Under the pieces are notes generated by a model. It was given only the letters and a program-made list of their open reading frames with translations. It was not told the origin of the DNA and ran no database searches. A stretch of DNA of 64,000 bases, taken from NCBI GenBank assembly GCA_036630325.1, contig CP142731.1:248001-312000 (forward strand), written 5' to 3'. The position numbers and the translations under genes were made by a program. The stretch comes from Vairimorpha necatrix. Taxonomy: Eukaryota. Position 1 is the stretch's first letter. Every line of letters starts with the position of its first letter. Shown in pieces: positions 12,243 to 63,967 of the stretch.

Positions 12243-13164
12243 AATTTTCTTATATAAGTAATATTTATAATTTTATTTGTTGGTTTATTATAAAAGTAGA
12301 TTTTTGAAGAAAATCTCTTTTTATAATAAACCAAAAATTAAAAAAAATTGAAAAAATATTGAGGGCAAAAGAGATACAACACTTTAAATGATTATTATAA
12401 CTACATTTAAAATTAATTTTTGTATACAAGCATATATTTATTTGTTATTTTTAATGTAATAAGTGCTTAGTAATTTTTGTCTCTTCTTTGCTCCTCCTTT
12501 ATTTTGCACTTCAATTTTGGGGTTCGAAAAAATAAAGTAAAACCCTCAGAGGGGGGGGGGGTATTTCGGATCCCAGCTCCTAAATTCTATACGTTGTATA
12601 AAAAAAAATATAAATCGTTATAATATCTCCATAAATACGGAACACTGATATTAAAAAGGCTTATTTGGGATTTTGCTATCATAGAATTACCTATCATAAA
12701 CTTGAAAATTTTTAAATGATTAAAAAATGATCGTAAAAAATTATTAAATTATTTTTATCTAATTTGTAATGCCTGTCAAAAGATGAATAATATAAAAATG
12801 TGGATAAGATTTCTGTAATTGCAAAAACATAATATTATTATGTCTTTTTTAATAACAATTAATAACCAATATCTATTTTTATAAGGTTAAAATTTTCCAG
12901 GTTTTTTATATCAATCCTTTAAAATATATTAATCATTCTTATATTTATAAAATATTTGTAATAAACTGTTTTAATGTTGATGCTTTAAATATAACACTAA
13001 AAAACTTTCTATTAATATTAGATAAATACTTATTATGTAAATATATATTTTTATATAATTATTCAAATTGATACCTGCCAAATAAAAGTTTCTATCATTT
13101 TACATGTCAAAACATTTCTTAGAGATTGGAAGCCTGTACTAACTTATAACTATATATAACTATA

Positions 13165-13382
13165 TGAGGTCGTGCACAGGGATGTGTCCCGTCCTGAGGT
13201 AGTTCTCTAGGATGCTGTGGCACTTGGATACATCGATCCCTGTAATATAATCCTTAGTTGGAAAAGATTTATTTATTTTCTCTTGATTGCTCTTGAAAGG
13301 CATGGGGTTAAAAAATTATTTCTTTAAATATTTTTGAGGAACAAAATATTTGAAAGATAATTTTACGTGTGGTAATACCACA
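13165..13382 (-). repeat. 3' LTR of element A
   Basis: Direct repeat of 16981-17198. Confidence 0.96.
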
Positions 13383-13393
13383 TTCTGCCTCTC

Positions 13394-16300
13394 CTATAAT
13401 TTGACGTCCATTATGTGCGTCATGTGGCGGTCTCCTTCTAGTCTAATCCACCTTCCCTTCCGTCCTATCTCCGTGACTCGTTTCTTCCTTTTAAATTTCT
13501 TACCTAATTTTTTGGCGTGATGGTCTTTGGCATATACTAAATCTCCTATGTTGACTTTGCATGGTGGAATGATGTATGGTCGCGATTTTACCGTGGTTTT
13601 GTTGTGTAGGGGATCGAATACAGAGAACTGCTTGATGGCTGCAAGGGGCGATGTTCCTATGGTGCGATTATGGTTCATGTTTATTGTATCCTCGATGTCG
13701 GCGAGGATTGGCCGAATGTTTCTTTTCTTGTTTATTGCTAAGATAAACGCAATGGTTTTGTTTAAAGATTCAGATATTCCATTGGATCTCGGACTGTAGG
13801 TTGGAATTAGTGTATGAGTGATCTTTGCATTGTCTAAGTATGTTTTAAGTTCTCTACCAATGTACTGTTTTCCGTTATCAGATATGATTTGTTTTGGTTT
13901 GCCGTAATCTCTTTCCCACTGGGTTAAGGCCTCTATGACTTTACTTGCTCCAACATTGTAATAGAAGTATAATCTTGTAAATCTAGAATATATGTCTGTG
14001 ATGGACAAGATATATCCTGCCTCCTTTTTCCCCTTATGAATGTAGTCATTTAATTTAAAAGGTCCGAAAATGTCGCTGCTTATTTTTTCAAATTTATGGT
14101 TGGCAGATATATGGGGTCCTTTAGTCTCTATTCCGTTATTTCGTGGTTTATATCTTTTACAAGTTTCACATTTTGATATTATATCCTTTAAGTTTTGAAT
14201 GATGTTTTTTACGTAGACTATATTTTTCAAGTTGTTATACATCGTGGTAATGCCCCGATGACCAAATAACACGTGATTGTTCTTTAAAAACATTTTTGTT
14301 TCGGCATCCTTTAGGATGATTCTACCCTTTGAATCCAGTAAATATTCTCCGTCTCTGTAGTGGCTTGCCTTTTGCAAACTTGCGATGTATTCTTTTATTT
14401 TAGGGGTTTCCTCTTCAGTGATTGCAAAGCATCTTGATAAGTTGTCGGCTATTACGTTTTCTTTGCCATCTACGTGAAAAAGGTCGTAATCAAATTCATT
14501 CATGTTTAGCTTCCATCTTAGTATTCTTGAAGTTTCTTTATTGCATCCCATTACACAGTTTTTACTGTCTGTGTAGACTTCTATGTAAGATCCCTGTGTA
14601 ATTTTTCTAAAGTGAATCATTGATAGCAATATTGAGAGATACTCTTTTTCTACTATTGTATAATTAAGTTCCGGTCCTCCAAATTTTTTGCTATAATAGC
14701 CTATGATTCTATCTTCTTGGTATAATACACTTCCCATTCCCAACTCACTAGCATCGCAGTTGAGTTTAAATTTCTTTTTAAAGTTGGGAAAACATAATTT
14801 ATGATTTTGGCGGATATGAAGTTTCATCCTTTCAATCTCTAATTTCATTTCTTGGGTGAGTGCTTTGTTTTTGTTTTCTTTCTTTAGTAGATCACTAATT
14901 GCATGTAGTTTCATTGACAAATCAGGTAGAAATTTCCTGTACCAGTTCATGACTCCTAATAGTTTTTGTACATCTTTTAGTGTTTTGATTTCCTTGTAGA
15001 AGATTTTGTTTTCTAGATAAGACTGTTTTGGGTAAATTCCATCACCTTTTACGACGTATCCTAATACTTCTACTTCTGATTGAAAGAATTTTGATTTTTC
15101 AAAATTAATTTTAATGTGGTGTTCAAATAGTCGTTGAAGTACTTGTAATAGGGTCGCAGTATGTTCTTCTTTGGTCTTGTTGAAAATAATTATGTCGTCA
15201 ATGTACACAAAGATGTTACTTATTTCTTCTAGCATGTTTGAGATTTTTCTTTGGAAGATCTTCGGCCCCGGTTTTATCCCAAAAGGTATTCTTTTATATT
15301 GGTATTGTTTTCCTAACAAGAAAAATGACGTGTACTTTTTGCTATTTTCTTCTAAAAGAATTTGGTTAAACCCATTTTTTAAATCAATTTGACTAAAATA
15401 TAAATTTTCTCCCATGAGTGTAATTGAGTCTTCAATGTTTGGAATGTTCCATATGTCGTCTCCAATGTATTTGTTTATCTCTCGATAATCTACGACCAGT
15501 CGTAGTTCATTAGTCTTCTTTTTTTCCTTGAAAAAGGCCGGACTCGTGATATGTGATTCGCTTTTCTCTATTATGTTTTCTTTAAGTAGTCTATTTACTT
15601 CGTCTTTGGCCCTTTCCAGAAATTTAAACGGAACGCTGTAATTTTTTGGCTTCATATTTTTCGGTTCCTTTATTATTTTAAACTCTACTTTTAAGTTGTT
15701 AATGTGACTAAAATTGTTGTTGTTCTGTTGGTAAAACTTTAAATATTTAATTATTTCATCTTCTTGAACGACACTACATATATTGTCCATTAACCTATCC
15801 TCTAGTATTTCGTCGATGTTTTTTCTCGCATTTTTTAGAACTACGATGTCGTTATCCAACACGATTGTACGATCCTTATAATTTAAAATAGCATTGTATG
15901 AAGTAAGAAATTCGTTTCCTAACAAAAATTCTATCGGTGCATTGTCTAATATCTTAAAGTTAATATGGTAATTTTTTCTGTTTGGTAGAGTGACGTTGAT
16001 TAAAGCTTGTTTGCTTATGATCCTGTGAGTACCATCTCCAAATATAGTTCTTAGTGGCTTGCAGTCCTCTACTGATAGATCAAGGCTTTTTATTACATCA
16101 CTTCGTACATAGTTGCGGTGTGATCCAGAATCGATTAATAGATTTATGTTGTTTCCTTGGGTAGTACCTTCTAATATCAGTTCTAAGGGTTCATGTTCGT
16201 TCTCTTCACGTAATATCATTGTTTTGTTTTCTTTTTCCTTAATGCCTTTATTGTTGTTAAGGAAATAGCAATCTTTACTATTGTGGGTATTATTCCTATG

Positions 16301-17119
16301 GTGAGTGCACCATTTAGTACTTGAGAGTGGAGCTTTAGTTTGGGGGGTTTTTTGAGGTAGCATCATTTTCTTACTTCTCTCACTATGCACTAAGAGTCCC
16401 GATTCTATTCTTTCTAGGTGAAGAATGATCTCTCGTAGTGTTTTATTGTGTATCCCGGCTTTATATAGTTCCATGTCGGTATATGGCTCTAACCCTCGTA
16501 AGAAGATTTCTTCTGTTCTTCTATCAGTTTCGACTTTGCTCATGTGTCCCAGAAAGCTATACACCTCGAGATCTTTGGTTATCTTATTGAAGTATTCTTT
16601 CACAGTTCTGAAGTTACTCTGCTTGATGTTCTCCAGTTTATTTAGGTATAGTCTTTTGTTTTCAAGGGGATACTTGATAGCAAGTAATTCCTTTTTCAGT
16701 TGCAAGTATGAAGTACTGTCTAGTTCCTCCTTGTAGTATTCATCTAGTATGAGGCTATAAGCAATTAGTCCCATCTGTGAGTCATTCCAGCTATTACATT
16801 TAGATAAGTGTTCAAATCTTTTAAACCATGAAAGCTCTAATTCTTGTCGTACGTCAAAGATTTTCTTAATTCTTTCTTGAATTTTTTCTTCAGTTCCAAG
16901 AACCTGCATGGTGAACTGGGCGTATTCATCACTTCTGTGTTTATCTGAGTTGTTTGCACTTGTTGTCGTTGAATTCAACTTGAGGTCGTGCACAGGGATG
17001 TGTCCCGTCCTGAGGTAGTTCTCTAGGATGCTGTGGCACTTGGATACATCGATCCCTGTAATATAATCCTTAGTTGGAAAAGATTTATTTATTTTCTCTT
17101 GATTGCTCTTGAAAGGCAT
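13394..17119 (-). CDS. Gag-Pol polyprotein (gag, CHHC knuckle, protease, RT, RNase H, integrase), intact
   Basis: WCTHHRNNTHNSKDC; LLIDSGS; YIDD; NCDAS/ADNLSR; H..H..CETC; SDNG; domain order PR-RT-RH-IN. Confidence 0.96.
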   Translation of the reverse strand: MPFKSNQEKINKSFPTKDYITGIDVSKCHSILENYLRTGHIPVHDLKLNSTTTSANNSDKHRSDEYAQFTMQVLGTEEKIQERIKKIFDVRQELELSWFKRFEHLSKCNSWNDSQMGLIAYSLILDEYYKEELDSTSYLQLKKELLAIKYPLENKRLYLNKLENIKQSNFRTVKEYFNKITKDLEVYSFLGHMSKVETDRRTEEIFLRGLEPYTDMELYKAGIHNKTLREIILHLERIESGLLVHSERSKKMMLPQKTPQTKAPLSSTKWCTHHRNNTHNSKDCYFLNNNKGIKEKENKTMILREENEHEPLELILEGTTQGNNINLLIDSGSHRNYVRSDVIKSLDLSVEDCKPLRTIFGDGTHRIISKQALINVTLPNRKNYHINFKILDNAPIEFLLGNEFLTSYNAILNYKDRTIVLDNDIVVLKNARKNIDEILEDRLMDNICSVVQEDEIIKYLKFYQQNNNNFSHINNLKVEFKIIKEPKNMKPKNYSVPFKFLERAKDEVNRLLKENIIEKSESHITSPAFFKEKKKTNELRLVVDYREINKYIGDDIWNIPNIEDSITLMGENLYFSQIDLKNGFNQILLEENSKKYTSFFLLGKQYQYKRIPFGIKPGPKIFQRKISNMLEEISNIFVYIDDIIIFNKTKEEHTATLLQVLQRLFEHHIKINFEKSKFFQSEVEVLGYVVKGDGIYPKQSYLENKIFYKEIKTLKDVQKLLGVMNWYRKFLPDLSMKLHAISDLLKKENKNKALTQEMKLEIERMKLHIRQNHKLCFPNFKKKFKLNCDASELGMGSVLYQEDRIIGYYSKKFGGPELNYTIVEKEYLSILLSMIHFRKITQGSYIEVYTDSKNCVMGCNKETSRILRWKLNMNEFDYDLFHVDGKENVIADNLSRCFAITEEETPKIKEYIASLQKASHYRDGEYLLDSKGRIILKDAETKMFLKNNHVLFGHRGITTMYNNLKNIVYVKNIIQNLKDIISKCETCKRYKPRNNGIETKGPHISANHKFEKISSDIFGPFKLNDYIHKGKKEAGYILSITDIYSRFTRLYFYYNVGASKVIEALTQWERDYGKPKQIISDNGKQYIGRELKTYLDNAKITHTLIPTYSPRSNGISESLNKTIAFILAINKKRNIRPILADIEDTINMNHNRTIGTSPLAAIKQFSVFDPLHNKTTVKSRPYIIPPCKVNIGDLVYAKDHHAKKLGKKFKRKKRVTEIGRKGRWIRLEGDRHMTHIMDVKL

Positions 17120-17198
17120 GGGGTTAAAAAATTATTTCTTTAAATATTTTTGAGGAACAAAATATTTGAAAGATAATTTTACGTGTGGTAATACCACA
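16981..17198 (-). repeat. 5' LTR of element A (contains the CCCC-ATG start of gag)
   Basis: Direct repeat of 13165-13382; the ORF start at 17119 lies inside it. Confidence 0.96.
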
Positions 17199-17274
17199 CT
17201 ATAAAACAGTAAAATAAGTAAAAATGAATTTTAATAAAAAAATTTCTATAATTTGAAATCTAAAAATTTTACCC

Positions 17275-18403
17275 ATGAAAAAATTTATACAAGGTATCAC
17301 TAATTTATCAATCAAATTCCTAGATATCATGTTATCGGGGGATAGTCAAATAACATCAAATCAGGCAATATCTCCATATTCATTTTCTCAAGTCTTTGGT
17401 ATTCTTTCAAATGATCAAAATCATGTCTCAAAGAAAAGATATATGAATAGGCTAGGATTTAAATCTCAAGATAATAAGTTTAATGAAAATTCAAAAGAAT
17501 TCAATGAGAATTTGGTTGAAGACAATAAGAACAGAAAGAATATTTTTTTAGTAAAAAACTTTTTACTTCATCGAAACGATGTCAAAATCAATGAAAATAC
17601 TGAAAAAATAATTAATGAATTCTACAATTCAACAGTAACTTCATATGATCCATATGATACTGAACAAGAATTAAAAAAAATTAATGAAATGGTCGCCGGG
17701 GCTACATATGGAAATATAAAGGAAGCTTTGAAATCTATTATTCCTAGAACTACTTTATCAGTAGTGAATACTCTTTATATGAAATATGAATGGTTTAATC
17801 AATTTGATTATTCTAGTCATGAAAATTTTGTTTCGTTTTCTGGACAAAATAGGCAAGAGATGATGTATAAAATATCAAAATTTGATGTGTATCAAGATGA
17901 TACTAAAATGGCGGTAAAGATGCATTTTAAAGATTCAAATTTCAGTTTTGTGGCTGTAATGCCAACAGAATTAAGAAAATGGAAAAAAAACAATTAAAAA
18001 ATTATGTGATGAAAAAGAATTAGATAAAATATTGACAAAAATGAAATATAAAAATATAGAATTGATTTTTCCTAAGTTTAAAATTGAATCAGAATCCGAT
18101 CTTAGTGATTTTTATAAAGAATTACGAATCGAGAACTTATTAAAAACCACGACATTTGATAGTTTAATAGAAAATTTAAATTTCAAAAAATTAACTATCA
18201 AACAGAAACTTAGTCTTGATATTAATGAAGGGGGAATATCTATTCAAAATTCAATTCCTCCCGCTATCACCAACAGCATTTTAGAGAATGTCGAAGTTTT
18301 TAAATTCAATACCCCTTTTTTATGGTTCGTAATAAAACATGATGCTAAGAATAATACTAACACGCCTATTATTATGGGAAAGTATACTGGACAAGAAAAA
18401 TAA
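17275..18403 (+). pseudogene. Serpin, frameshifted in an A8 run (or a sequencing error); non-inhibitory-looking loop
   Basis: 17275-17997 and 18032-18403 join into one ~375-aa serpin if one A is removed from 17983-17990; ISPYSF, FPKF, DINEGG, FNTPFLWFV. Confidence 0.88.
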
Positions 18404-21163
18404 ACTATTAATTTTACTTTTTTTTATAAAGCGTTAATTATAGTCGTAGATTTTATTGTAAAATAACCAGGATAAGTCTAAATTTTTTTAATCTTTGTTT
18501 TTGTTAATTTACAGAAAATTTACTGTAAATAAAATCTCGTAAAACGTTTAAAATTATTTATAAGTTTCATATTAAACCTATTATTTCTTTGAAATAGATT
18601 TCAAGGTTATCAATAGCAGTTTATGGCCCAAGTAAGACAATTGTGCAATTTTTTACAACATGGGAAAACTGCATAAATTCTGATTAGAAATGAAATCAGA
18701 ATATATAAATCATAAATTCTACTTATTTTTGTTTTACTTTAGCAACAAACTAAAGATTTTTAAAAAAATGTATTTTATAAGTTAGAACATATGCCAAATT
18801 CATTTTTGTAAATAAATTTGCATTGTTTACTTTAACTATTGTTAAACTACTTATAACACTTGCAAACGAAATATTTATTTTTATGATGCTTTATACTACT
18901 TTTTTCCAATTTTTTTGAGCTAAAATTTTCAAATATATGTATTACTTCATGTATATAATTCAATCCCATTACTTTTTATCATATGACTACCAGAAACCTT
19001 CTTATCCTGTTTTTCATACAATAACTTTTGACAATTATATTCCCTTGAATAGGCACAAACTAACAACTTAAGTGAACAAATTAGATACAGAAAATCTGAT
19101 GTTCAGTATTATTTTAGCAGTTGAAAATTATAGATACCATTACAACATTGTAAATAACTAAAAAAATCATATTGTGAGTTAAACGAATTAATGTACTAAT
19201 TTCCTGCGATTTGTTGCAATCTCTGTTCGCTATGCAATTTTACGATTTTTTTCTGTCTTAAATGGGGCATTCTACCTCATAAGCTCTTGTATTCACCTTT
19301 ATACCTTTTTTCAGAGCATAAATACATTTAGAAAAATGCAAATTGAGTTATAGATCGTGATGAATATTTTGTCATTCTAACCCTTTAACGTTGTGTAATT
19401 TAAAGAAGTATACAACAATAAGAATCATTTTCTTATATTTATATATAAAAAATAAGTTATCTTTCAATGTAAAATAAATTTATACACATACTTAAAGTAT
19501 TACTATGAATACATTTAGTTTAAACTAATATCCTAGCAAAAATCTTGGTATCTTCAAATTTTTAACTTATCAAGTCTCATCTATAATATTATGTATATAT
19601 TTATTTTTTTCTTGTTTTTTTTTGGACAAATTTCATCTCACGTAGGAATATGAGAGCGTTGACTATTAGTAGAACATCATTTAGCCTTAGAATGTATATT
19701 GTTTAAATTGCTAGTCTGTACACTATTTATTCTAAACAGTATCGAAATGTAACGAGAATATATATTTATGTTTAGTAACAACGGCTGTGAGCTATATAGC
19801 GTTTGTAAGACAAAGTAGGAAATTATGCAAAATCGTTAAAAGAATTAGAAAAGCAAATAACATAAGATAACGAGCTGCATTCTCACAAGGGACAGATACT
19901 TTCAATTTCTCTGTCTAATCAACCTCTTTCATGTAAGAGTCTAGTGTAATTATCATTTTGAAATTAATAAAATAATGCTTTTCACATGCTAGCTCAACAA
20001 TGAAACCTTTATTATTATAACGAGAATTCTCTGTTCAAGTTATTTATAAAAGTATATACGTAAAAAAGTGAATTTAAAAAAAATTAAATATTCGATTCTA
20101 TAATGAGTCTACGTTCGAAGTTTATAATTCTACATGTAAAAAAAAAAAATTATTTTTTTAATAATATTAATTTTTATTTCCATGAAAATAGCCATTGTAT
20201 TGAATTTTAAGTGCTCGGTGAGAGATTTACGTTTGTAATTATTTTCATCAAATGAAGTAAATTTTGAAATTTGTCATTTACATTAGATTATATTTAAAGT
20301 TACGTTTTTATATAGGTTAAATTTTTTATTTATTCTCATAGTTTCTTGTGCACTTATTAGTCGTAAAGAACTTTTGTGTACATTTAATTTCCAAGTTATA
20401 ATGCTTAAAAGTATTATAATAGTAACCCTGTAGGAAATTGTTGTAATACCATAAGTAAATTTCCCAAAAAAAATAACGAGAGGAGTGATAATATTCTATT
20501 TTAATATATATACTTTTATAATGTGTCAATGCTTGAATTAAAACTTATATTATACTGGCGAATAACAATAGGCCTATCGTTTAATTAATTATCGTTAAAG
20601 ATCTTGTGACATTTTTTACCAAAAATTTAGAAAAGTGATGGTTTTTTTTCTGTTTCGCTTTTATAATTTCATTGATTCAATATATTCAATTATAAAAACT
20701 TAAAAAATATTAAATTAAAAATAATTAATTATTCTAATTTTTTAATTTTTTCTTGAAGAATATCATTTTTGCTACATACATAATCTAATCACAAATTATA
20801 TGTTAGGCCCAGTTCCAAAACATATTATTTATATTATGTCTTTCTTCCACAATTGCTCGCCAAACGAATATACACAATCGATTAATATAGTGTTAGTCGT
20901 TCCAATTAAAAGTTTCTTTCTAGCTATTTTTTATTTAGCTGAGCAAATTTTGCTTACAATTGTACCTATTGAATTTTTATATTCTTTAGGAACAAAAAGT
21001 GCAACCTGAGAAATATTTATTATTCTTTAATAATTGAAATTCATGTCTCAGTAAACGAGAATAAGTCGAACGATTTTCTTTAATCAATATTTTTAAAATC
21101 TAGAAAACGCGTGACATCAAATTAGTTTTTAATATTTTATACTTTGTGCGTGTTAAAGATAAT

Positions 21164-21886
21164 TGTAAGTTGGGGGTTAATTTATTGCATATATTCTTAA
21201 CATCCCCGCGCTAAATATAGAACTGAGTGATGTAATTATCTTTACAACTTACTACGCCTACTACTTGGCTCTTAAAATAAAAGTTCATTTTTATGTTAAC
21301 TGACCATGGGCTGCGCTTTGCTACATCGCATCTTACTATCCCTTCTAGTACTGGTCTTCGCGGTACTTTTTTCCCCTGTTATAATACATAAAGTTCATGG
21401 GCATGTGGTTAGTCTTTACTCATGTCTTCTCAACAATGAAATCGAATTTTTTCCGTCTATCTCATTCTTCGATAACAACACAGTTTCTTTTTGATTTTCT
21501 TCTCTTTTTAAAGCTCTCCGGATTTTTGAACACTGGTAGTTCAGCTATTTTGCCACGTTAGTTAATGTGAATAGTGAGATTACCACTACACTCTATCTCG
21601 ACAACTCTTATGCCAGATCTTATTACAGTCAATACTGTTTCTTAATAATTCTTCATTGCACCTCAACATCTTCACCTATCCGGGTCCCTCGAATGACGCA
21701 AGCACTCTTCTCTTCTGTTTTCAACCAACCCACCCCATTCTAAAATTACTGCATTTTTTACGTCCCATGCCTTGGCGAAATTTACAACCTCTTTTTTGTT
21801 TATTTTTGGGCTCAATAATTTTATTTTTACCATGTAAAAGAGAAATGTAAGTTAAGGGTTAAATTTATAAATAATTATTCTCAACA
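21164..21886 (-). mobile_element. Decayed, internally deleted LTR retroelement with ~40-bp LTRs
   Basis: Diverged TG...CA repeats at 21164-21202 and 21846-21886; PPT-like GCGGGGA abuts the 3' copy; purine-rich interior with a GIVR..SPW RT-like relic; no TSD. Confidence 0.55.
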
Positions 21887-23208
21887 GTGCAAAGTTTAAA
21901 CACCAAACCAAATTCTTATAGGGTCTTTCCTTTATATACCAATCATATACACTGTAGTCGTTTGATTGCATTCAATTCTATATTTGTTTTTAAACTGACA
22001 TTCATGTAAATTAAACAAGCTTATAAGGACAGCACCATAAAAATGAAAAAGCGATTTTCTACAAATACAACAAAGTTCTATATTAATTTATAATGTCAAA
22101 TTTCAGACCGCATCCAAAATAACAATCAAATTGATGAACATCTCGATTTAGATATTCTCAAATAATAAAAAATGTCTGTATACATAATTCTTTGTGTTTA
22201 CGCTAGAGTTGTCTCACATACGATTTTTTGGAACTGTTCGTAATATGTGTTAAATAGTGAATAAGATTTAATATTTAAATGCACACAAATAAACAAATGT
22301 TTTTTTTTTATATTTTGCACAACAAATTTATACAATAAAACAGATTTTAAAGCAAAAATAACATCTCTATATGACATCATGAAATTTAAAACTGTATTCA
22401 TCAGTATAATTATATATTTCATCTTTTGATATACATCGCTTGTTTTTTTTTGGTTTATAGTATCAGTTTACTATTGGTGAAATTAAGATTATTGATCATA
22501 TGAATCAATGTTTTTTTTGTAAATACATAAAAAGGCTAATAAGAATTGGTTTAAAGATTTTTAGAAATTTACAGTTTTTATTGGACTATGCAAGAAAATC
22601 AAAACTTATTTTTCCTTATGCAACGCTATTACATTTAGTAACCATTTTTTTACACAATCAATCGATGTGACATAGATACCCTTTATAATTTTTTAATATA
22701 ATATAGTTTTATTTCAAAATCAAAAATATCTGTCCTTATAGAAAAATCATCACATGGTTTAATTTAATTAATTTGAATGATTCGCGACAAAAAAATTGAC
22801 GTTTGATGGAGTTGACATGTACACATTGCCTTGAAAGAATTTTTGACACCATTGGAATCTGATTCCTAATTTCATATTCAAGCTAAAGATTTTTAAACTA
22901 TGAAATTTTTAAAAATTAATTAATGTATATAATCTCATTAATAAATTAAAAGTCATATTTTTCTTTTAAATTAAATGTCTGTATTTTTGTAATTTTGCCT
23001 AAATAATTTGTATTAATAATTTCTTTGTATATGTGCATTATGAAATTTATTTTATGTGTGGTTTCAGGTATGAGAAATAATATTCTATTATAAAGTTTAT
23101 GTAGTTTTAGTCATAACCAATGCAATACATTATGCTTGCATTTTACTTTTGTTTTAGATTAATATTTTTATTTGCGCACTCATATGCTAAAAAAAAAAAT
23201 TTACCCTT

Positions 23209-25374
23209 ATGAATTTTTTTAAATTTTTTTTTAAGACCAACTATTTAAATATATACGATGCATTAAATATCTCTTTAAGGCATAAAGCAGAAAATAAAGA
23301 TTATTATATGCTTGACTTTGACGCGCAATACTGGAGAGTATGGATTCATTATAGCAATGAAGATAATATAATAATAGGACAAATAACTGAAGATCCGACT
23401 AGTACTTATAGTACAAAAGTAAAGAAAACTTTTTATATCGATTGTGATAACAAATCAATAAAATTAATTTCGATGGAGCTTGAAGATAATGTAAAAAATT
23501 GTAATCGAATATTTTTAACAGATTATAAATTGTTGGTGTATGAACGAGAAGATATTCTAAATTACTCATTAATGAAAAATCTAATAGAGCATATTAGAAA
23601 TACAAATCAAAAATTTAAAGAAGTACATTATGAATATATTTTAGAATTCGACAATGATACAAGCCCAATTTTTTTAATAACTAAATTTGATATTCCATAT
23701 AATGAATTTGAGATAAATATGATTAATCAACCTTTCTACATAATCCAAAAAAACAATACAAAATATATCAGAATTACGATAAATTTAAGAAACTTTTATT
23801 TTTTGTTTGAAATTAATTGCGAAGATATTTTTTCTGCGCTCAAATCTTTACCAGAACATAATGATGATCTTTCAAAATATATATTAGAATTATATAAGTT
23901 CGTAGATATCGATTCCAACAAAAAGTTTTCAAAGAATGATAATTTTGTTCCATATTTTACCGATTTTATAATTAGCTATGGTGGATTAAAACTCGAAACA
24001 AAACAGGATGAAATTGTTTTTAGTCAAACATTTTGTAGTGAAACTTATTTTTTTGAAGATAATTCAAATGAGTGCACCCACGTTAGCGACAAAATCTGCT
24101 ACGACGAATTTAGAAAGATCTTAGAATTTATCTGTAAAATTAAAGTAAAAAAATTTCAAGGAGCTGAACTATTATACAGACTTTTAAAAAAGCATAATAA
24201 GATAGAACTGATTTTATTAAGAATTCTAAATTCTGTTACTGGTTTAAATATATTTTTTCTGCAACTTGGTAATTTATTAGAAGTATTGGAATTAGATGTT
24301 ACAAGAAACCGTGAAAAATACAATACAGATAAAAACAACTTTGTAAAGAGAATTGCATATTTATTATCTTCTAATCATAGCTTTCCTTTTTATCTAATCA
24401 AAATTTGCTTATTCTTAGAGGTTGAAAAAATGCTAAATGAATCAGAGATTGAAAACGATACAATACTCACAACTTTATATAGAATTAATCTATTGTTATC
24501 ACAAAACAATGAATTTGTAGATTTGATGAATGTTTATGACTTTATAAGTCTTTATATGGAAGAAACAAGAAAATTTAATATTGATTTTGAAGAATATGCA
24601 TTAAAAACAGCATCATTGTTTCAAAAATCTGATAATTTCACTATAATAAAAAAATCAAACAAATTTACTTTTAATAAATATGAATTTTGTGAAGAGTTAG
24701 GATTTGATATACATAAAGTAAAAAAAAATTCAGAAATTTTTCTAAAGAGATTAGTTAAAAACATATCTAATTCGGGGAGCAAAGAGCATGATAAGCTACA
24801 AATATCAGATTACAAAAAAAAATTTGAAAAAAAGGTACTAAAATGCTGTAGAAAATACTGTGATAAATTAATAAGCGAAATTAATATTGAAGATGCAAAT
24901 AACGAAGATGAAATGAAGAAATACAAAAGAAACCTAAAAAGCACTTGTAAGTTTGGAATAAGAAAAATTTTAAAATCTTCTGAAATACAAATATTGCGAG
25001 GTGATATGGAAGAAGCTCTACAAAAACATAAAGTAAGAATGTGGACCAATGTAAAAGAACAAGTTAATAAATTAGAAATGTCAATATATGAATATTTATG
25101 TTATAAATATATAAATAAGATAGATAGAGAGTTTACAGCACATTTAACACTTTATAAGGAGAAAACAAAACAAAAGAATGCGAATGAGTTAAAGCAAAAT
25201 CTCATAAAAAAATTTGAAAACATGATAATCAATGGAGTAGAGGATAATAATCTCGAAGGCAAAATCATGGATACTAAATCAAAAATGTCAGAAGAAGAGT
25301 TATTACAATGCATTTCAGAGGGAAAAACAGCTATTGATCTATTAGATAAATTGATAGACATTATAAAGCAATAA
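23209..25374 (+). CDS. Hypothetical protein, 721 aa, Lys/Glu-rich helical C-terminus
   Basis: Long ORF in AT-rich DNA with a CCC motif before the ATG; no motif recognised. Confidence 0.85.
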   Translation: MNFFKFFFKTNYLNIYDALNISLRHKAENKDYYMLDFDAQYWRVWIHYSNEDNIIIGQITEDPTSTYSTKVKKTFYIDCDNKSIKLISMELEDNVKNCNRIFLTDYKLLVYEREDILNYSLMKNLIEHIRNTNQKFKEVHYEYILEFDNDTSPIFLITKFDIPYNEFEINMINQPFYIIQKNNTKYIRITINLRNFYFLFEINCEDIFSALKSLPEHNDDLSKYILELYKFVDIDSNKKFSKNDNFVPYFTDFIISYGGLKLETKQDEIVFSQTFCSETYFFEDNSNECTHVSDKICYDEFRKILEFICKIKVKKFQGAELLYRLLKKHNKIELILLRILNSVTGLNIFFLQLGNLLEVLELDVTRNREKYNTDKNNFVKRIAYLLSSNHSFPFYLIKICLFLEVEKMLNESEIENDTILTTLYRINLLLSQNNEFVDLMNVYDFISLYMEETRKFNIDFEEYALKTASLFQKSDNFTIIKKSNKFTFNKYEFCEELGFDIHKVKKNSEIFLKRLVKNISNSGSKEHDKLQISDYKKKFEKKVLKCCRKYCDKLISEINIEDANNEDEMKKYKRNLKSTCKFGIRKILKSSEIQILRGDMEEALQKHKVRMWTNVKEQVNKLEMSIYEYLCYKYINKIDREFTAHLTLYKEKTKQKNANELKQNLIKKFENMIINGVEDNNLEGKIMDTKSKMSEEELLQCISEGKTAIDLLDKLIDIIKQ

Positions 25375-26349
25375 AAATAAAATTTTTATGATAATTTATT
25401 TTCAAATTAAAAAGATCATGTATAGAAAACAAATTATATCATGTTTTTACTTTTAAAATTTGATTTTCAGATCATTATATTATAGTCTTGTTTGAGCATT
25501 TTTTCTTGAAATACTTAATATTATAATTTTCTATAATCACAGCCGCTTTCGTGTTTGTAATTGTTTCTTTAAATGAAGGCAATTTAATATCTAAAATTAT
25601 CCTGTAATCCCTTTATTGTATATACCTATCCGAAGTATCTACTCTAAAATATTTACTATCATCATCAGATATATAAAAGAATTTTTTCACCCTGTTTTTG
25701 TGATTCTTATATATATATATCTATGTGTTTGAATCTTACTATGTTTATAACAATAAAAATATAAATTAATGTTTACAATTGAAAATGTTAGGCACGTATA
25801 CTATATGTTAATAAGTTTCTATACAATATTCTATGTTTCAATAAACTTGGTTCAAAAATATCGTCGGTATCTGTTTAAAATTTTAACCTTTCCACAAAAA
25901 ATTACAAAAACATTAAACCAATAAAGATTTCAGATATAAGTGTCAAAAATTGAACTTAAAAACATTTAATGCTTTCAATCCGAATTATATTGAGTAATTA
26001 CATTCAAAAGGTTTTATCAAGTTAAATTTAAAGCTGTTTTTTTTTTTTGAAAAATTACATCTCTTTCTTTTATTTAAAACCAACAATAATTAAAAACAAG
26101 AAAAACTACATAAATACATATCTCCTGTTTTCAAAACGGGAAAGCATACGCTATTACGTAAAAATTGAATTATGAAATTCAATATATCATAAAGAAATAC
26201 GTGTTTTAAAAAATATTAAAATTATCTTTTAGTGAAAAAATCGAAATTTTTACTTAAATTGTAATTAATTTTTGTAAAATAACTATAAAAATTTCGGCCT
26301 TTAAAGTGTATTTCTTGAGCTTTTTCTAAAGTATTATGTTTATACAAGC

Positions 26350-27830
26350 AAATGAAAGTTTACCTGATATAATGTTAGTACAATTATGGAAAGCATCAAA
26401 AAAGAAGAATGTGCACCACTTGATATTAATGATGAATATCATAGCGTAACTTTAAAATATTCGGGTGGAGGAAAAATATATAATATGTTCTACGTTGTAC
26501 ACAACAACGAATTTGAACATTTTTTTAAAAAAATAAAAACGAGTGATTTGCAATAACAACACCATCAAAGACATTATATTGGAAATTAGAGGAACAATTT
26601 TGTAAATCTCAATTATTAACAGCTCAAAGCCATTTAATTTGATATACAATAAAGATGAATTAGAAAAAGTCGTTGAAAAATCTAAAGGTACTATCAAGAA
26701 CAATAATATAGAAAAAATCGAAAAATTAAAACCAAAAGAAAAAAAGAAAAGGGCCGATTTAATTTTGAACATATTTGTTACGAGAAATCATATATTAAGG
26801 AAGCATATAATGAAATTACAAAAATCCAATATGCTACCAAACATAATCTACGTATTTCAGAGTCTGTCATTAGTATCTGATCATTGCATTAGATTCAGAA
26901 TAAGTATAAAAAATATATATTATTTTTTCAAATAAAATATTCGTAAATGAGCAAACTTGACAAAAGTAATTTCACTTGATAAAAAATGGTCTGATGCTCT
27001 TTCCTCGGTCTGTGATTCTTTATGCAAAGGTGGTGATGTCGATTTGCCATTTATATGATATGCCAAAAGATATGTTAAGAGCAAGCTATCAAAAAGGATT
27101 CTATGATGCAAAAAAAAATAAGGCATAATGAAGACGAAAATCAATTAAAATACGATTCTTGGAACTATTATCTCACATTAAGATGTAATTTAGCTTACGA
27201 CAAAATGTACACCAATTCAAGCGATCAATGTCGCAAGGAAATTGATAATTTATTATCTAGGATCTCTGCCATACTTTTTACTAATAATTACGAAAACATT
27301 GAAGAGTTTAGTCATTTACTCAAAGAAACAGATTCTATGGATTTTACAATTCGACGAATGTAAATGATAAGAATTTGGAGTTAAAAGGATTACTGACACA
27401 TATTTTATAAAAAAAAGTATAAATAACGAAATAAACTTAATTTACTTTTTGGAAATAAAAAAAACATATGAATACAAAATAAAATTCATCATATATATGA
27501 TTTATGACCATTTAACCCGTCAAATATCATTTATTTGTCCATAAGTCAAAATATTTTTTTTTGATTGAAACAGAGAGATTATTAAAAAAAACTAATGAAA
27601 TTGATTACATTGAGGATTATTTTTTCCAAACACTTAAAGACCTGAAAAACAAATTGGGTCTAATTACAATATGAATATAACCTGCGCGAGTAATCATAAA
27701 GAAGGTATTAATTTGCTGGGATATATGACTTTTATGATTTTAAAATTGAATGAACTCCTGCAAAATCTCTTATACATAATTTATGGCACTAATATCATTA
27801 TTTACGAGATCGAAAATAAGCCCAATGTTT
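26350..27830 (+). pseudogene. Probable decayed gene of unknown family
   Basis: Successive short + strand ORFs (26639-26935, 27103-27363) with coding-like purine bias; boundaries approximate. Confidence 0.35.
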
Positions 27831-29944
27831 AACTTCAGTACTAAAAAAATATGAAATGTTTGAAAAAGATAAGATTATGAATGCATGGACTAAGACCCTT
27901 TAAAGGTAGAAAAAGCCAACAAAAAATTAGAAACGAGGTAGTCGGTTGTCATATGAAGCGATTACTAAGAAAAGAAAATAAAAGAACATCTTTTTGTTCC
28001 CTTGAACACATATTAAATTTAAAATTTTTTTATCGTAAATTTATTTTTTTAAGAAAAAATTATGTTTTTTCTTTTACAAAAAGCTATTCGAAGCATAAGA
28101 ACACGCTGAACGGCGATTATGTTATAAAAAAAATTATTAGTTAACACTGTTATTTGTATTCTTTTATTATAGAGTTATGTTTTTCTAAAACAACGCTTTT
28201 AGTTGAATAAAAATTGTAGTATATATCAAACGCAAATATAATTAGTAATATGATACCATGTAAAAGCTATTTACATGCACTCTTAGACATTTTATAACTG
28301 TTAATACGTCTTGTATAATATAAAAAAAAATTTACTCATCTAAAATTTTATGAAATTGAAGAAGCAGCAAATATAACAAATTTTACTTTAATTCAATATT
28401 TTCTTTATATTATTAATAGCTTGTTTTTTATAAAAGTATTTACATATATCAACACGTCTTTGTAAAACTATTTCTTCGGGTTAATTAATAATTTATTTTG
28501 TCGATAAATTCGCAATAGTTTTAAATATAAGGAAATTATTTATGTTGTTCTTATAATTACCATTTTAATGTCACCAACAAAATGCTTTATCTATTGATAC
28601 TATGTTTTGATGCATCAAAGAATAGTAAATTAAATTATTACTAGTTATACAAGAGTATTGTTGTTTTTTTCTGAATTTTATGTCATGTTTTTTTTTAGAA
28701 ACTTAACTAGTAGTATAGAATCTACACTTTTAATATGTTAGTTTTGGTGATATAAAATATATTTATCAATTTAACCAAGATGTTCAAAAAAAATTTTCCA
28801 GAAATTAGGTCATCCCTGGGTTAAAAGCATTTGTATTCTTATGGAACATTAAAGCCTTTTAATAGACGCTGTAAATAACAAAGAGGATAAAATATTATAT
28901 TTTTTAATTTTGAAAAATACAAAACATGTCCAATTAATTTTATAAACAATTTGGAGGTGTAAATGGAGAAAAAAATCTAAGCAAAATATCAACATCTGAA
29001 GTCAACAAAAATGTTTGTTCTATAATAATAAATATGCAGTAGAGTTAAAGAAACTTTTTCCTTGATTTTTTTTTTCTAGAGTAGTCACGGGTATTTTTTT
29101 TTAAGGTATATACTGAAGGCTCCCCAATTATATCATATCACAGAGTCAAGTTTATACAAAGTATAAAATAGATTGTACAAAAAATTTTATTTATGTAATT
29201 CATTTCATATTCGTATAATAATCTAAATCAAAAAATTCAAATTGGATAAGAAAAATATATTGTTTGTATATCTTTTGAATATACTCTTTGCGCACTACAA
29301 TAAAAAAGCTAATAATAAAAAACCAATCTTATTTGTAAATAAATAAAATATTTTTTCTTCTTGTATGTTAAAAAAATATTCTGTTAAAATGTGTTATTAT
29401 TTTTGTACAGCAATCCAACATATGAGTAACTAAAAATAAGAACATTTTTTATTTTGTACTTTTTTGTAAGATCACGTACAAAGCCATATGATGGCATACC
29501 TGGTATGACTTGGAAATTGTAAATTTTTATTTGGTATTGTTATCTTAATTTAAAAGACTATATTTCGGCAGGAGAAAATACTTTAAACGGAAGAGTTTTT
29601 AATGTTTTTTCATGTTCGATTATACATTCCAGGTCGATTTTATGAAATGTCCATATAAGGCAAACACTATACGAACATAAATATTTGTTTTAATAGTCAA
29701 AATCTTTAATTTAAACAAATATGCGCTGGAAGTTATCAACACAATTTTTAGTTTGCATGGTTAATTTTGTATGCACAACGCGAACAATTTTTTTGTTTTA
29801 TGTTTTAGCTATTAGCAATTATATTATTGTTCGATGATAGTTGGTGAAATTAATAATTCAACTTATAGATTTTTAGATTTACAAATCTATATCTATCTAT
29901 ATATTTAATGGTCTTATATCTAAAATACTTGCATTGTTTGCAAC

Positions 29945-30239
29945 CTTTATTTCTTTATTATTTAAATATATTTATTGGGTTAATATTGCCTCAATGTTGT
30001 TTACAATTAGCACATATAATCACAGAGTTGCTTATGGAAATTTATTCTTCATAGATTATTGTTTCTGTGTTTTATCAATTCATTCAAGCTCTATCGATAC
30101 ACTGCTGTCTTTTCTACACACATAATTTATTCATCAGTTATTTTTCCAACTATGCACTTACAGCTATAGCCATTTCTTCTCTTGTAACATCTTCTTAGTC
30201 GTATCCTCGGCGTCGATCTAAGAAAATAGACCCTCATCT
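29945..30239 (-). mobile_element. Decayed 3' fragment of an R4-like LINE
   Basis: ~30151-30235 aligns by eye with ~8852-8936 (RRRGYD...AVSA coding segment). Confidence 0.7.
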
Positions 30240-30595
30240 AAAAAAAATATTTTTATTTGATACCATACAAAATTTGCTTTTGCATTACAATATATATAAT
30301 TTGTTCGGGTATAATATTCGGCCTATTAATTACTTTTCACAAGATACGCTTACAGTCTCATCTGGCAGTTCCAGGACTTCCTTCTGAGATTCACTCATTG
30401 GGCTCTCGAAGACACCTTTCTGATCTGTATCAAACCCATGTCTGGCTGACATATTTAGGCTTTCTAAAGTCATTTTAAGGACTCTTGACTGTATATATGC
30501 TTCCGTTCTGGGTTCTAATCTGAGCACTTTGATATGCGTACGGTGAAAATTAGTTACTATTCCATCCCACGTCATCACATAAGGAATAATGCATT
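30240..30595 (-). mobile_element. 5'-truncated 3' fragment of a second R4-like LINE subfamily
   Basis: Encodes IIPYVMTWDGIVTNFH...EAYIQSRVLKMTLESL, homologous to 8696-9445; ends AATAAA then T8 on the sense strand. Confidence 0.85.
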
Positions 30596-32892
30596 ACATT
30601 AAAAAATCATTTATAAGAAGAACATTAAAATTAAACAGACATATTTGTCAAAAAAATTCAAGAAGAAATGAAATTGCTATTTTATTCATATGTTCTACTA
30701 AACTACAAGACAAGTTAAACTATAAAAAACTTTTGCATTCTCATAGGTGAGCTTAGCTATAAGATTTACACGTATGCTAACTATTTAGATTTTATATGTT
30801 TTTAGAACGCCCGTACTTTGCTTTTGTGGAGATATTCAAATAAAAAAAAACTAAAACTATTCAATACTTATAGTGATACATCATTACTTTAAGTCAAAAT
30901 AAAAAAAATTAATATCTCATACAGCGTTTTTTAGTATTTTGATCTTTTCGGCTGATCAGACTCTTTTTCATTTATATATTTTGTCTTTTTAACATTTTTT
31001 TACAAAAATGAGGAAAACATAAAATTAATAAGAAAAAAATAAAAAGTATAAAAAGGCACATAAGTGAATGTAAAATTTTTAAAATATCATATAACATAAA
31101 AAATCGATATAAATGAAAAGAAAATTTTTGTAATCTATATAGAACAAATAATTGAGGAGGAAACAATATCTAAAACATACCTTTCCTCTGAGATTCCATT
31201 AAGTTTCTATAATGAATAATTAGATAGGACATTAACACAATATATTACCTTACAGCAATTTGTGGAACATCGAATTTGGCGTTCTTAAAAAACATAATAA
31301 TTTCATTAAAGATGCATTCATATAAAATACAATCTAACTGGTAATACGAATGTATTTGTCAAAACCAACCAATAAAAAAGAAGAAAAAAACAATATAATA
31401 GAGACCATCAGATGGTGGAAGTTTTGATATTTAGCCAAGATTGAATTGCATAACAATGAAAGAGTTTAATTATATACATTTAACGATAGTAAATAAATTT
31501 TCCCTTGGTTAAATATTAAAAAATATATGAAAATGAGGAAATGATTGTTTTTTTCTCTTGTTAGAGAGTATATATGACATTAAAAAGGGGTATATTTATC
31601 AATCATTCGACCATTGAAGACATCGTTAATACAGAAAACGCTGTGTTTATAGATAGCATTTGAAGAAAATGACCATTGAAAAAAAGCATTTTTATCTGGC
31701 GCAAAGATTAAACAAAAATTAGTAGTAAATCGATAGATAAGTATTAAAGCCAAGATACACTTTTATTTTTTTAGTATCAATATTAGCATTGTAGAATTTA
31801 CTAAATCTCACATCGTTTATTTCGTTCTCTTCATCTTGGTTTTATAGTTTTAAGAAAAAAAATAAAACATGAAGGGTACGATCTCGTGGATAAAAAGAGT
31901 CAGATTGTTTGACTATTCCATCACATTTATTCTTAAATTGAACAATAATGATAGAGTTCTGCTCAGTTAACTTTTTAAAATTAATCGTTGTACTTTTTAA
32001 TGTAATTTTGTTTATATTTTTTTTTGAAAAAACTAAATTTGGTCAAAACATTATGAAAAGAGAAAGTACATAAATTTATAGGGAAACAATTTTACAAAAA
32101 TTAATGAATCATTTAGTAATTAACTTAGTGAATTCTTGTAGTTAGTTTAAACAGTTTATTTAATTTTGAACACGGCATCTTTCTCGCTAAAAAAATTTCA
32201 AACGTTTTTTCTACTTCTAAAATCATCAATTTTTTTGTGTAGGTTTCTCAATTTTGTTTTTTTCTTTTACTTGAAAATTTGTAAACTAGATTTAATGAAT
32301 TATTATAAATTAAGTATTAGTGATCGTTTATATTTTCTAAATTTTTAAAATATAAAAAAGTAATTTGTAATGAATCATTGTTTATTCATTAATTATTTTT
32401 TTGGTGTAATAAAATCGCATAAAATTCAAAAAATATAAGTTTATGATGAAGATCACATAAATAAATTTGAAGAAATACCTTTTTTTAGTATTCTATTCCA
32501 TCTAAAAATATCACAACAAAATTTGACTTATAATCTCTTATATATAATCTGATGTGAAGTGTGTTTTTATAACAATATCTAAGCATCTAATGTTTAAATG
32601 TTTTTTTGTAATGTAATAGCTTTGTTTTTTATATAGGGTCAATTTTCATAATGTCATATGTCTTTTTATGAGTTTATTTAATAATAATGCTTCAATAAAT
32701 TGATTATTGAGAAAATCCTCATTGTCTATAATAATTTATGTATTGGTCTAATTAAAATAATTCTACAGTTTATTAAATACTTCTACATATAATTTTTCAT
32801 ATTGCTGAAATGAACTCATTTTTCTGAATCAGGTCTTTTCGCGTGAAACAAACGCCATATGCCCTTCCGTTTGATGCGAATTTTTTTTTTTA

Positions 32893-33511
32893 CATGACCG
32901 TTTAGAACCCGCTTTGGATAATGAAACCGCTTTGAAAATTAAATGACCCCTTTCAAAAATGGCCAAATTGGCAAAAACAATGTTTGTTGAGGCAGATGAG
33001 CTTTTAAGTGATAAAATGAATTTATGCGTGGAAAACAAAGAAAAGTTTATTTTGGTAACATTTGATGCTGAATCAGCGTGCGCCTTGCTCGTTTTTTGTA
33101 ACTAATGGAAACTGCTATTTCCTTGAGGTAATAGAAGATAATGTACAACTTGTTTATTTAGATCTCCAATCAATAAGTAGAACATAAACCACATTAGACA
33201 AGCAAAGGGAGGGAGCACAGATCTTTGATCCACTCATCAAATCTGTAAACACTAGCGATTTTGAGACACAATACCAAACAATTTAGTTAATTATGGCTCA
33301 TTTCCAAAAGAAATATTTGATCTAGACATGGAATAACCCGGGACGAACACTATAAGTAACTTATACAGTCCCTCTGGGCTTCACAAATCCTCAAAATCAA
33401 CGGCAAATCATCTCCTTTTATTATTTAAAATAAATCGTTAAGTCTATTTTTTGATTATTTTTTATTTTTGTTTTTTTTTTAAATTTTCAAAGCGGGTTCC
33501 AAACGGACATG
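32893..33511. mobile_element. TA-flanked TIR element (Tc1/mariner-superfamily-like deletion derivative)
   Basis: TIR CATG(A/T)CCGTTT(A/G)GAACCCGCTTTG at both ends, each flanked by TA; no intact ORF. Confidence 0.7.
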
Positions 33512-33867
33512 TACCATTTTTTTATATAAAGTGCAATTCCAACATTTTTTAACTTTGTTTTGAAAAATTTAAATTTATAGGAAAAAATTACTATAAAACA
33601 ACTTTGTGGTTGTATGTAAATAGTAAAAAATTATAATATATAACGTATAAGATATAATATACAAGTTATAAATCTTTATATAGTTTAGACACCCATTTAC
33701 TAATTTTTAGTTGAAGTCTTTTTTAGAATTTTTTTGTGTGGGGTTAAAAAATTCTAATAATATATTCTGACGATTCCTTAGAGCTGAGTTTTATCAAAAA
33801 AACAAATAAAAGAAAAATGCGTGTATCAAGAATATACATGTATAATGTCAAAATGAGGGATTATATT

Positions 33868-34095
33868 TGTGGTATTACAACCACATGTAAAATTCCATTT
33901 TCCCAAAATGGAATTTCTTAAATATTTTTTTTAAAAAATATTATTTTTCGACCCCAACAAAAAGAAAGAAGTAGATGCAGAAAAACAACAATAAACATTT
34001 TTTAAATAATAAACAAACAAGGCCCAAGGAGCCGTTTACAAGTAGTTTGCTAGAGGCCTACTTTCAACGAGGGTTCATCCCTCGTGACCACCTCA
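33868..34095 (+). repeat. 5' LTR of element B
   Basis: Direct repeat of 37696-37923; contains the gag start at 33975. Confidence 0.96.
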
Positions 34096-51286: not shown

Positions 51287-51405
51287 TGTTTTTCAAAATC
51301 TAAAATATTTTTTATATTTCTAATTGAAACATGTTTCAATTAGTTTAAAAGAAGTTTCATAATTAATTTTTTATTGGTTAAAAAAAAATAAAAAAAATTT
51401 TTTTT

Positions 51406-60696: not shown

Positions 60697-60734
60697 TGTT
60701 AACCATTTATTTATTAAGGGTTCTAAACCCTACA
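60697..60734 (-). repeat. 3' LTR of element C (38 bp; contains the ORF stop)
   Basis: Identical to 63734-63771; bounded by the PPT and the TSD. Confidence 0.93.
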
Positions 60735-63743: not shown

Positions 63744-63771
63744 TTATTTATTAAGGGTTCTAAACCCTACA
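63734..63771 (-). repeat. 5' LTR of element C (38 bp)
   Basis: Identical to 60697-60734; bounded by the TSD and the PBS. Confidence 0.93.
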
Positions 63772-63848
63772 TAAAATAAAAAATTCATAATTTTTTTTCT
63801 ATATATTACTATTAATACATATTCTAAAATTTATTTAACTAAAAAAGT

Positions 63849-63967
63849 AATTACGGCCATATCTACTGTAAAGCACCGGAACTCGTCAGCTCTCCGAAGT
63901 TAAGCCAGTAAGAGCCCCGTGAGTACTGAGATGGGAGACCGCTCGGAAAAGCAGGGTGCTGTAATTT
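63849..63967 (+). rRNA. 5S rRNA: 5S ribosomal RNA
   Basis: TACGGCCATA..., GAAGTTAAGC (box A), AGTACT..ATGGGAGACC (box C); terminal helix AATTACGGC/GCTGTAATT; T4 terminator; ~119 nt. Confidence 0.95.

Follow-up and report, generated by a model that had tools for sequence, protein, structure and literature searches.

The 64,000-nucleotide stretch of Vairimorpha necatrix DNA considered here (contig CP142731.1, positions 248,001 to 312,000; hereafter the window) carries two young 4-kb Ty3/gypsy long terminal repeat (LTR) retrotransposons, A and B, in which a 12-nt perfect palindrome occupies the place of the primer-binding site (PBS) beside the 5′ LTR. The features of the two elements are listed below, with PR, RT, RH and IN standing for protease, reverse transcriptase, RNase H and integrase, ORF for open reading frame, and TSD for target-site duplication.

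13165-17198, minus strand: element A, a 4-kb Ty3/gypsy LTR retrotransposon
13160-13164 and 17199-17203: TSD of A, TATAG, 5 bp, read from the flanks
16981-17198, minus strand: 5′ LTR of A, 218 nt, TGTGG...CCTCA, containing an ACCCC motif and the ORF start (ATG, 17119-17117)
16980, minus strand: spacer of A, a single A between the terminal CA of the LTR and the palindrome, the LTR end being fixed by the TSD
16968-16979, minus strand: palindrome of A, GTTGAATTCAAC, perfect over 12 nt, at the PBS position and in frame as K-L-N-S-T
13394-17119, minus strand: gag-PR-RT-RH-IN of A as a single ORF, P0001, 1241 aa
13383-13394, minus strand: polypurine tract of A, GGAGAGGCAGAA, adjoining the 3′ LTR
13165-13382, minus strand: 3′ LTR of A, 100% identical to its 5′ LTR
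33868-37923, plus strand: element B, a 4-kb Ty3/gypsy LTR retrotransposon
33863-33867 and 37924-37928: TSD of B, ATATT, 5 bp, read from the flanks
33868-34095, plus strand: 5′ LTR of B, 228 nt, with the ORF start ATG at 33975
34097-34108, plus strand: palindrome of B, GTTGAATTCAAC, 12 nt, after a spacer A at 34096
33975-37685, plus strand: gag-pol reading frame of B, with one TAA at 35991-35993 where A encodes Q
37684-37695, plus strand: polypurine tract of B, AAGGGGGCAGAA, adjoining the 3′ LTR
37696-37923, plus strand: 3′ LTR of B, 100% identical to its 5′ LTR

In both elements the gag-pol ORF starts within the 5′ LTR, directly after an ACCCC motif (at 17119 in A and 33975 in B), and continues past the end of the LTR, in A through the palindrome. 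The Pfam domains of P0001 (protease at residues 317-413, RVT_1 at 533-689, RT_RNaseH at 755-876, Integrase_H2C2 at 939-993 and rve at 1028-1110) stand in the PR-RT-RNase H-IN order, which together with the TG...CA LTR pairs, the TSDs and the polypurine tracts marks the elements as Ty3/gypsy (Metaviridae). The best named protein match to A, annotated as a partial reverse transcriptase of Hamiltosporidium magnivora, is 52% identical over 63% of A. The one Ty3/gypsy hallmark absent from both A and B is a PBS complementary to the 3′ end of a transfer RNA (tRNA), beginning TGG; a tRNA-complementary PBS is usual in this group, not obligatory. The TAA at 35991-35993 falls within the RT of B, despite the identical LTRs of that element; this would mean either that B was defective before it inserted, a short time ago, or that the mutation is itself very recent.

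No TGG occurs within 10 nt after the 5′ LTR of A or B. Both LTRs end in ...ACCTCA, followed by one spacer A and then the palindrome, and the LTR boundaries fixed by the TSDs confirm what the original prediction had described, the same palindrome one nucleotide past the LTR end with no TGG. Its further claim, that 21 identical nucleotides span the LTR junction despite strong divergence on either side, also holds up: across the 5′ LTR and early gag the two elements agree in 280 of 486 aligned columns (57.6%), yet they share the uninterrupted 21-nt ACCTCAAGTTGAATTCAACGA, whereas no other identical run in that region is longer than 9 nt. All synonymous sites of the palindrome region are identical between the two elements. 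The sequence GTTGAATTCAAC is present in exactly two copies in the window, and still in two when up to one mismatch is allowed, against 0.37 expected; at least two were seen in 5 of 100 shuffles. A lone 12-nt palindrome proves little, because such palindromes are fairly common in a window of 27% GC (57 perfect palindromes of at least 12 nt in 64 kb, about one per 1,100 positions). Since the palindrome alone is not rare, the case for the site rests on its position and on its relatives.

DNA of the family was found in the contigs of prokaryotic genomes, as retroelement contigs mis-binned into bacterial metagenome-assembled genomes (MAGs), and a gag search of the bins added more. The layout of terminal CA, one nucleotide and a 12-nt perfect palindrome is present in all seven family elements for which there is DNA, namely A, B and the following five.

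L162: palindrome TATGACGTCATA
L244: palindrome ATTGAATTCAAT
L250: palindrome GCTGATATCAGC
L251: palindrome GATGAATTCATC
L168: palindrome ATTGATATCAAT, 16 nt including flanks

The single bin G001 supplied four of these elements (L162, L244, L250 and L251), no two of which have the same palindrome. For P0020/L244 a prediction had been made from the peptide (KLNSM), and the DNA bore it out with ATTGAATTCAAT. The palindrome of L168 precedes the ORF and, being outside the coding sequence, is kept there without coding constraint. The relatives share an LTR start of the form TGTCGT...ACGAC after a G-rich polypurine tract, and the ORF begins inside the LTR in L162, L250 and L251, with a CCCC-ATG start in the last of these. 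The pattern CANNNTGANNTCANNG matches 12 times in G001, compared with 21 matches for a control pattern, and on reading those 12 only the three element sites proved to be perfect palindromes. L172, a more distant gag relative, carries a classical ...CA TT TGGTAGCACCG site, and we therefore regard the palindrome as a derived replacement of a tRNA-type PBS.

The palindromes differ in a manner that preserves their symmetry. Across seven elements and six pairs, all 42 cells are complementary. Three pairs are invariant in every element (T-A, G-C and A-T, giving TGA..TCA), and the other three (1-12, 2-11 and 6-7) change on both sides, in nine cells. Neither the observed pairing nor the observed covariation score was reached in 500 column shuffles, and sliding the register lowers pairing to 20-57%. 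The central pair consists of two adjacent bases, AT, CG or TA; since neighbouring bases are unable to pair with each other in a hairpin, the site must have as its partner a second molecule of the same sequence. The computed energy of the 12-bp duplex is -14.0 kcal/mol, versus -1.1 for the mini-hairpin, and folding places the palindrome in that 4-bp mini-hairpin and not in a loop. Within 260 nt upstream of the site none of the seven elements has a complement of at least 8 nt of the sort used by the fission-yeast element Tf1, and none has such a complement within 160 nt downstream that might act as the second arm seen in fungal GalEa elements. The complements that do occur in these intervals are 6-7-mers scattered at inconsistent places in four of the seven elements, in keeping with the earlier observation that no perfect complement lies near the presumed transcript start. 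Judged from these sequences, the site is under nucleotide-level function and constrained by intermolecular base pairing.

Proteins extend the comparison. A HMMER search with gag of A (residues 1-310) returned 213 relatives at E ≤ 1e-3, and among the best 150 of the 213, which we examined, many start in the LTR-encoded N-terminus and share ..Y[LF]..G..P.., after which comes a short motif where A and B have LKLNST. This motif is variable, reading LNS, MNS, LIS, MIS, LSS, MSS, LTS, LNL or VNL. Where it is LNS (TTG AAT TCA), the codon of the next residue can begin with A (K, T, I, M, N, R or S); where it is MNS (ATG AAT TCA), that codon can begin with T (F, Y, L or S). The central residue is solely N, I, S or T, which can be encoded by AAT, ATA, AGC and ACG, and these are the four codon forms whose centre is complementary to itself. 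The hidden Markov model aligned the site in 43 sequences, A and B included, and 41 of the 43 allow a palindrome of at least 12 nt there, whereas the background compatibility in the same proteins is 3.15% (1,505 of 47,772 positions). When the residues after the site were permuted among the 43 sequences, the mean number compatible was 17.0 (standard deviation 2.9), and the maximum in 5,000 trials was 28 of 43. The two misses, P0038 and P0021, are alignment slips, each with a compatible VNLSS site six residues upstream. Such variation is far from what would be expected under peptide conservation. The original prediction had proposed that relatives be examined for covariation, and in them the peptide changes while compensatory changes keep the palindrome; the contrary case that it had set out, conservation of the peptide LKLNST alone, does not describe a family in which the peptide varies and the palindrome is compatible in 41 of 43. 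A word search with the gag region in a set of 5.8 billion proteins gave no relative in the near length class.

Taken together with its position, the symmetry of the site leads us to suggest that A, B and their relatives possess a tRNA-independent, self-complementary PBS and prime themselves in trans within an RNA dimer, a reading to which we would assign a probability of roughly 0.55. Covariation supports pairing at the PBS position; that this pairing is the source of the primer is what we infer. Minus-strand synthesis has to start next to U5, the part of the LTR nearest the site, as otherwise the LTR would not be regenerated, and because the palindrome is the sole conserved element there we read it as the PBS. 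Its self-complementarity, in turn, is why the primer is read as the corresponding site of another genomic RNA molecule. On this view, a microsporidian lineage of Ty3/gypsy elements would have given up tRNA priming, and the palindrome would be its PBS. Two sense-strand genomic RNAs would pair through their copies of the site, and the resulting 12-bp RNA duplex would begin one base after U5. By analogy with Tf1, one RNA of the dimer would be cleaved at the 3′ edge of the paired region, presumably by the RT/RNase H of the element, and the new 3′-OH would be extended across the spacer, U5 and R (the terminally repeated part of the LTR) of the partner to yield minus-strand strong-stop DNA. The original prediction had offered three options for priming, and they fare differently. 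Pairing of the two packaged RNAs is favoured by covariation of the central pair, which speaks against the second option, a fold-back of the site; the third, a host RNA ending ...CGUUGAAUUCAACU as a fixed primer, is argued against by the four palindromes within the single bin G001. It is possible, although we hold the idea tentatively and at somewhat less than even odds, that dimerization and initiation of reverse transcription are fused in one 12-bp element, so providing a third, dimer-dependent start beside tRNA priming and Tf1-type priming in cis.

Several points weigh against priming in trans, or at least against the simple form in which we have put it. A cut 3′ of the site would sever R-U5-PBS from the rest of the cut genome, and the model explains neither how plus-strand transfer is completed nor how plus-strand synthesis comes to a stop once a 12-nt RNA has been copied; use of the uncut partner as template would solve the second-strand-transfer problem. 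The last bases of U5, from the C of the terminal CA, show partial covarying pairing with positions 13-17 (one to six of seven cells paired per pair), leaving the A of CA and the spacer as a two-base bulge. The simple model does not account for this flanking pairing, which may mark the site of initiation or cleavage. LTR ends are proven by TSDs for A and B alone, those of the other five elements being deduced from the terminal CA and the pattern of polypurine tract and LTR start, and the DNA of the relatives derives from only three bins, which limits phylogenetic independence. The sequences in the peptide test are likewise mutually related representatives of 50%-identity clusters, and their counts are not independent events.

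Among other explanations, the main rival holds that the palindrome is only a dimer-linkage or packaging signal, a dimerization initiation site (DIS) beside U5, and that some other, unrecognised primer is used. We think this unlikely, if well worth considering. Palindromes drive the dimerization of retroviral RNA, a DIS would also explain covariation that calls for intermolecular pairing, and the likeness is real, in that a self-complementary sequence in the 5′ leader of a retrovirus pairs two genomic RNAs. What a DIS does not need is a fixed offset of one base from the LTR end, which a priming site does; moreover, no other conserved sequence and no TGG follow U5 in any of the seven elements. 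Classical DIS palindromes, 6 nt in length, are exposed in hairpin loops and are additional to a PBS at which a tRNA primer is still used, whereas the family has no separate PBS. In mouse mammary tumour virus palindromes lie within the tRNA PBS itself and affect packaging, but substitution mutants show no direct pairing by the PBS palindrome (PMC4264320). That the site is a conventional PBS for some host RNA (an internal tRNA fragment, a tRNA without CCA, or a piece of small nuclear or ribosomal RNA [rRNA]) and palindromic by chance strikes us as very improbable, even though Copia-type elements and some elements of fungi do prime with half-tRNAs or from within a tRNA (PMC6317226, PMC5445492). 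With a host RNA as primer the sequence should stay constant, and nothing would maintain its symmetry, yet there are six different palindromes with symmetric compensatory changes, four in one bin, so that several palindromic host RNAs per genome would be needed. In addition, a perfect 12-mer palindrome without a loop should fit no tRNA arm, as reasoned from standard tRNA geometry. The RNA genes of the window comprise no tRNA gene and one 5S rRNA gene, and on reading the 5S sequence the site is not in it.

Constraint at the level of DNA, with the two-fold symmetry serving the binding of a protein dimer (the integrase, for instance, or a transcription factor of the host), is in our judgment quite improbable as well. 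The TGA/TCA half-sites, invariant in all seven elements, do look like protein half-sites, and L162 contains TGACGTCA; cores resembling TGACGTCA are similar to sites of bZIP proteins. But the outer two pairs and the central pair vary freely (G-C, A-T, T-A; T-A, A-T, C-G) and remain complementary, a pattern that base pairing explains and a protein contacting a specific sequence does not; nor would protein binding account for the constant distance between the site and the LTR end. We give little credence to pairing in cis, whether with the 5′ end of the element's own transcript, as in Tf1, or with a downstream arm, as in a GalEa-type hairpin. Self-priming is a known tRNA-free route in Ty3/gypsy elements (Tf1/sushi and Tcn1; PMC6317226), and GalEa elements have a palindrome abutting the LTR (PMC5445492), but a partner in cis would not require a palindromic site, and complements of at least 8 nt are missing from both sides of it, as given above. 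Complementarity of the PBS to the first 11 or so nucleotides of the transcript, the start of R, is absent from all seven elements over the 260 nt upstream, the transcript start being unmapped. Conservation of the N-terminal gag peptide alone is scarcely credible. It is true that A and B read the site in frame, as part of LKLNST, and that relatives conserve peptide motifs beside it, Y[LF]..G..P among them; the residues of the site itself, however, vary (N, I, S or T; L, M or V) just as upkeep of the palindrome demands, identity between A and B extends to synonymous sites, and in L168 the palindrome is non-coding.

For every LTR retroelement and retrovirus, the means of priming reverse transcription defines how the element replicates. 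To our knowledge there are only two established solutions, a host tRNA (whole or half) and fold-back self-priming of the Tf1 type, and a single earlier report, on the GalEa elements of fungi, which belong to the Copia superfamily, describes a palindrome where the PBS would be, without a mechanism. The primer duplex of Tf1 is 11 bp. What we propose for the family of A and B would resemble the priming of Tf1/sushi elements, and of Tcn1 and TAR of plants, in its independence from tRNA, its use of the element's own RNA, its cleavage by RNase H, its primer covarying with the PBS and its PBS duplex of about 11-12 bp. The two differ in that the first 11 nt of the Tf1 transcript fold back onto a PBS that is not palindromic; the LTRs of A, B and their relatives hold no such complement, and their site pairs with itself, so that a second molecule is needed. 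Yeast Ty1, whose gag ORF likewise begins within the 5′ LTR and takes in the PBS, offers a parallel for the arrangement of the reading frame; Ty1, however, uses initiator tRNA-Met, to which its PBS is complementary. Self-priming from the 5′ end of the transcript is described for Tf1/sushi, Tcn1 and TAR (PMC6317226).

The closest precedent for the palindromic site is the Conserved Hairpin Site of GalEa elements, described in 2017 (PMC5445492), which lack a PBS. There, a 9-bp sequence makes up a palindrome together with the final A of the LTR, CTGATCAGT or CTAATTAGT, and a complementary second arm (CHSeq2) 12-41 bp downstream allows a hairpin to form; the authors report no complement of the Tf1 type and give no mechanism (PMC5445492). 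The two groups are alike in having no tRNA-type PBS, a palindrome at the edge of the 5′ LTR in its place, variants that keep the symmetry, a single large ORF, TGT...CA LTRs and 5-bp TSDs, and in lacking a Tf1-type complement. They are unlike in that GalEa elements are Copia, with IN before RT, whereas A, B and their relatives are Ty3/gypsy, with RT and then IN; that the GalEa palindrome is 10 nt long including the last A of the LTR, whereas ours is 12 nt long and follows a one-base spacer; that our elements have no counterpart of CHSeq2 within 160 nt downstream; and that their site usually lies within the gag reading frame. A palindrome in place of the PBS is thus now seen in an unrelated superfamily (Ty3/gypsy) and in another host group, the microsporidia. 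We found no description of a palindromic site in microsporidian elements in the literature, in a search that lay outside most subscription journals (and with them older work on Nosema LTR elements) and outside supplements. Covariation of the central pair points to pairing of two RNA molecules and, with that, to a defined and testable mechanism; if priming does depend on a dimer, this may also explain the palindrome of GalEa elements. For elements annotated as having no PBS, a practical rule follows, which is to look for CA, one nucleotide, and then a 12-nt palindrome containing TGA..TCA.

The LTRs of the family have other features in common. In every one, the first 15-30 nt form an inverted repeat, for example TGTGGT-ATT-ACCACA or TGTCGT...ACGACA (window 17184-17198, minus strand, and 33868-33885, plus strand; L162, 3924-3950; L168, 1597-1617; L250, 57-86). 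The gag ATG lies in the LTR directly after CCC(C) (window 17117-17130, minus strand, and 33955-33977, plus strand; L251, approximately 1945-1960), and AATAAA occurs no more than about 30 nt from the gag ATG in A, B and L162. This arrangement suggests that the R region is very short and that the promoter is of the microsporidian type.

As to where the relatives reside, L161, L162, L168, L172 and the G001 contigs C178, C226, C351 and C370 are complete or partial eukaryotic LTR retrotransposons in bacterial MAGs; these MAGs bear titles such as Clostridium, Anaerovoracaceae and Cyclobacteriaceae, and the contigs are binning contamination. L162, L168 and L172 are permuted assemblies with a single LTR and overlapping ends. 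Among viral contigs, P0001 as query found no relatives, and alignment A4 as query found 80 loci, of which two, L087 and L082, gave weak partial gag matches and none fitted the model of the N-terminal motif. In metagenome contigs, alignment A4 as query likewise found 80 loci, all of them distant (22-32% identity), with four weak gag matches and the motif in none. A gag search of five further MAGs yielded no new gag relative. Two candidates were set aside, a weak gag-like signal in the window at 42650-42950 (minus strand), which looked like noise on reading the sequence, and a palindrome at 228-237 of L168, which is unrelated and lies within the RT/RNase H coding region.

The remainder of the window contains additional retroelement sequences, one RNA gene and a few recognisable protein genes.

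63849-63967, plus strand: 5S rRNA gene (Rfam RF00001, 92.7 bits), the sole Rfam match in the window
60723-63743, minus strand: third Ty3/gypsy-like ORF, 1006 aa, RT-RH-IN, without recognisable gag or PR, in the region 60696-63772
60696-60735 and 63733-63772: perfect 40-nt direct repeats flanking the third ORF
10188-12242, minus strand: 684-aa ORF with an RVT_1 domain only, about 900 nt from the 3′ LTR of A
2011-3831, plus strand: lipin/Ned1/Smp2 phosphatidate phosphatase gene
6265-7401, plus strand: serpin gene
46923-48116, plus strand: serpin gene
51320-51343: 24-nt perfect palindrome, CTAATTGAAACATGTTTCAATTAG

The 40-nt direct repeats, if they are LTRs, are unusually short. They lie about 77 nt from the 5S gene, and targeting of genes transcribed by RNA polymerase III by this third Ty3/gypsy-like element is a possibility. 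The 684-aa ORF may belong to a non-LTR retroelement. Summed contig depth is very high (thousands, in run X2), with many internal joints, at 21100-21700, 25500-26800 and 29950-30600; these stretches are multi-copy repeats common to the two organisms in which sequence of the window occurs. Among the entries listed for four contig-only runs over 16000-35000, none falls at either palindrome, which bears on neither expression nor variation. The palindrome at 51320-51343 is the longest in the window that contains G or C.

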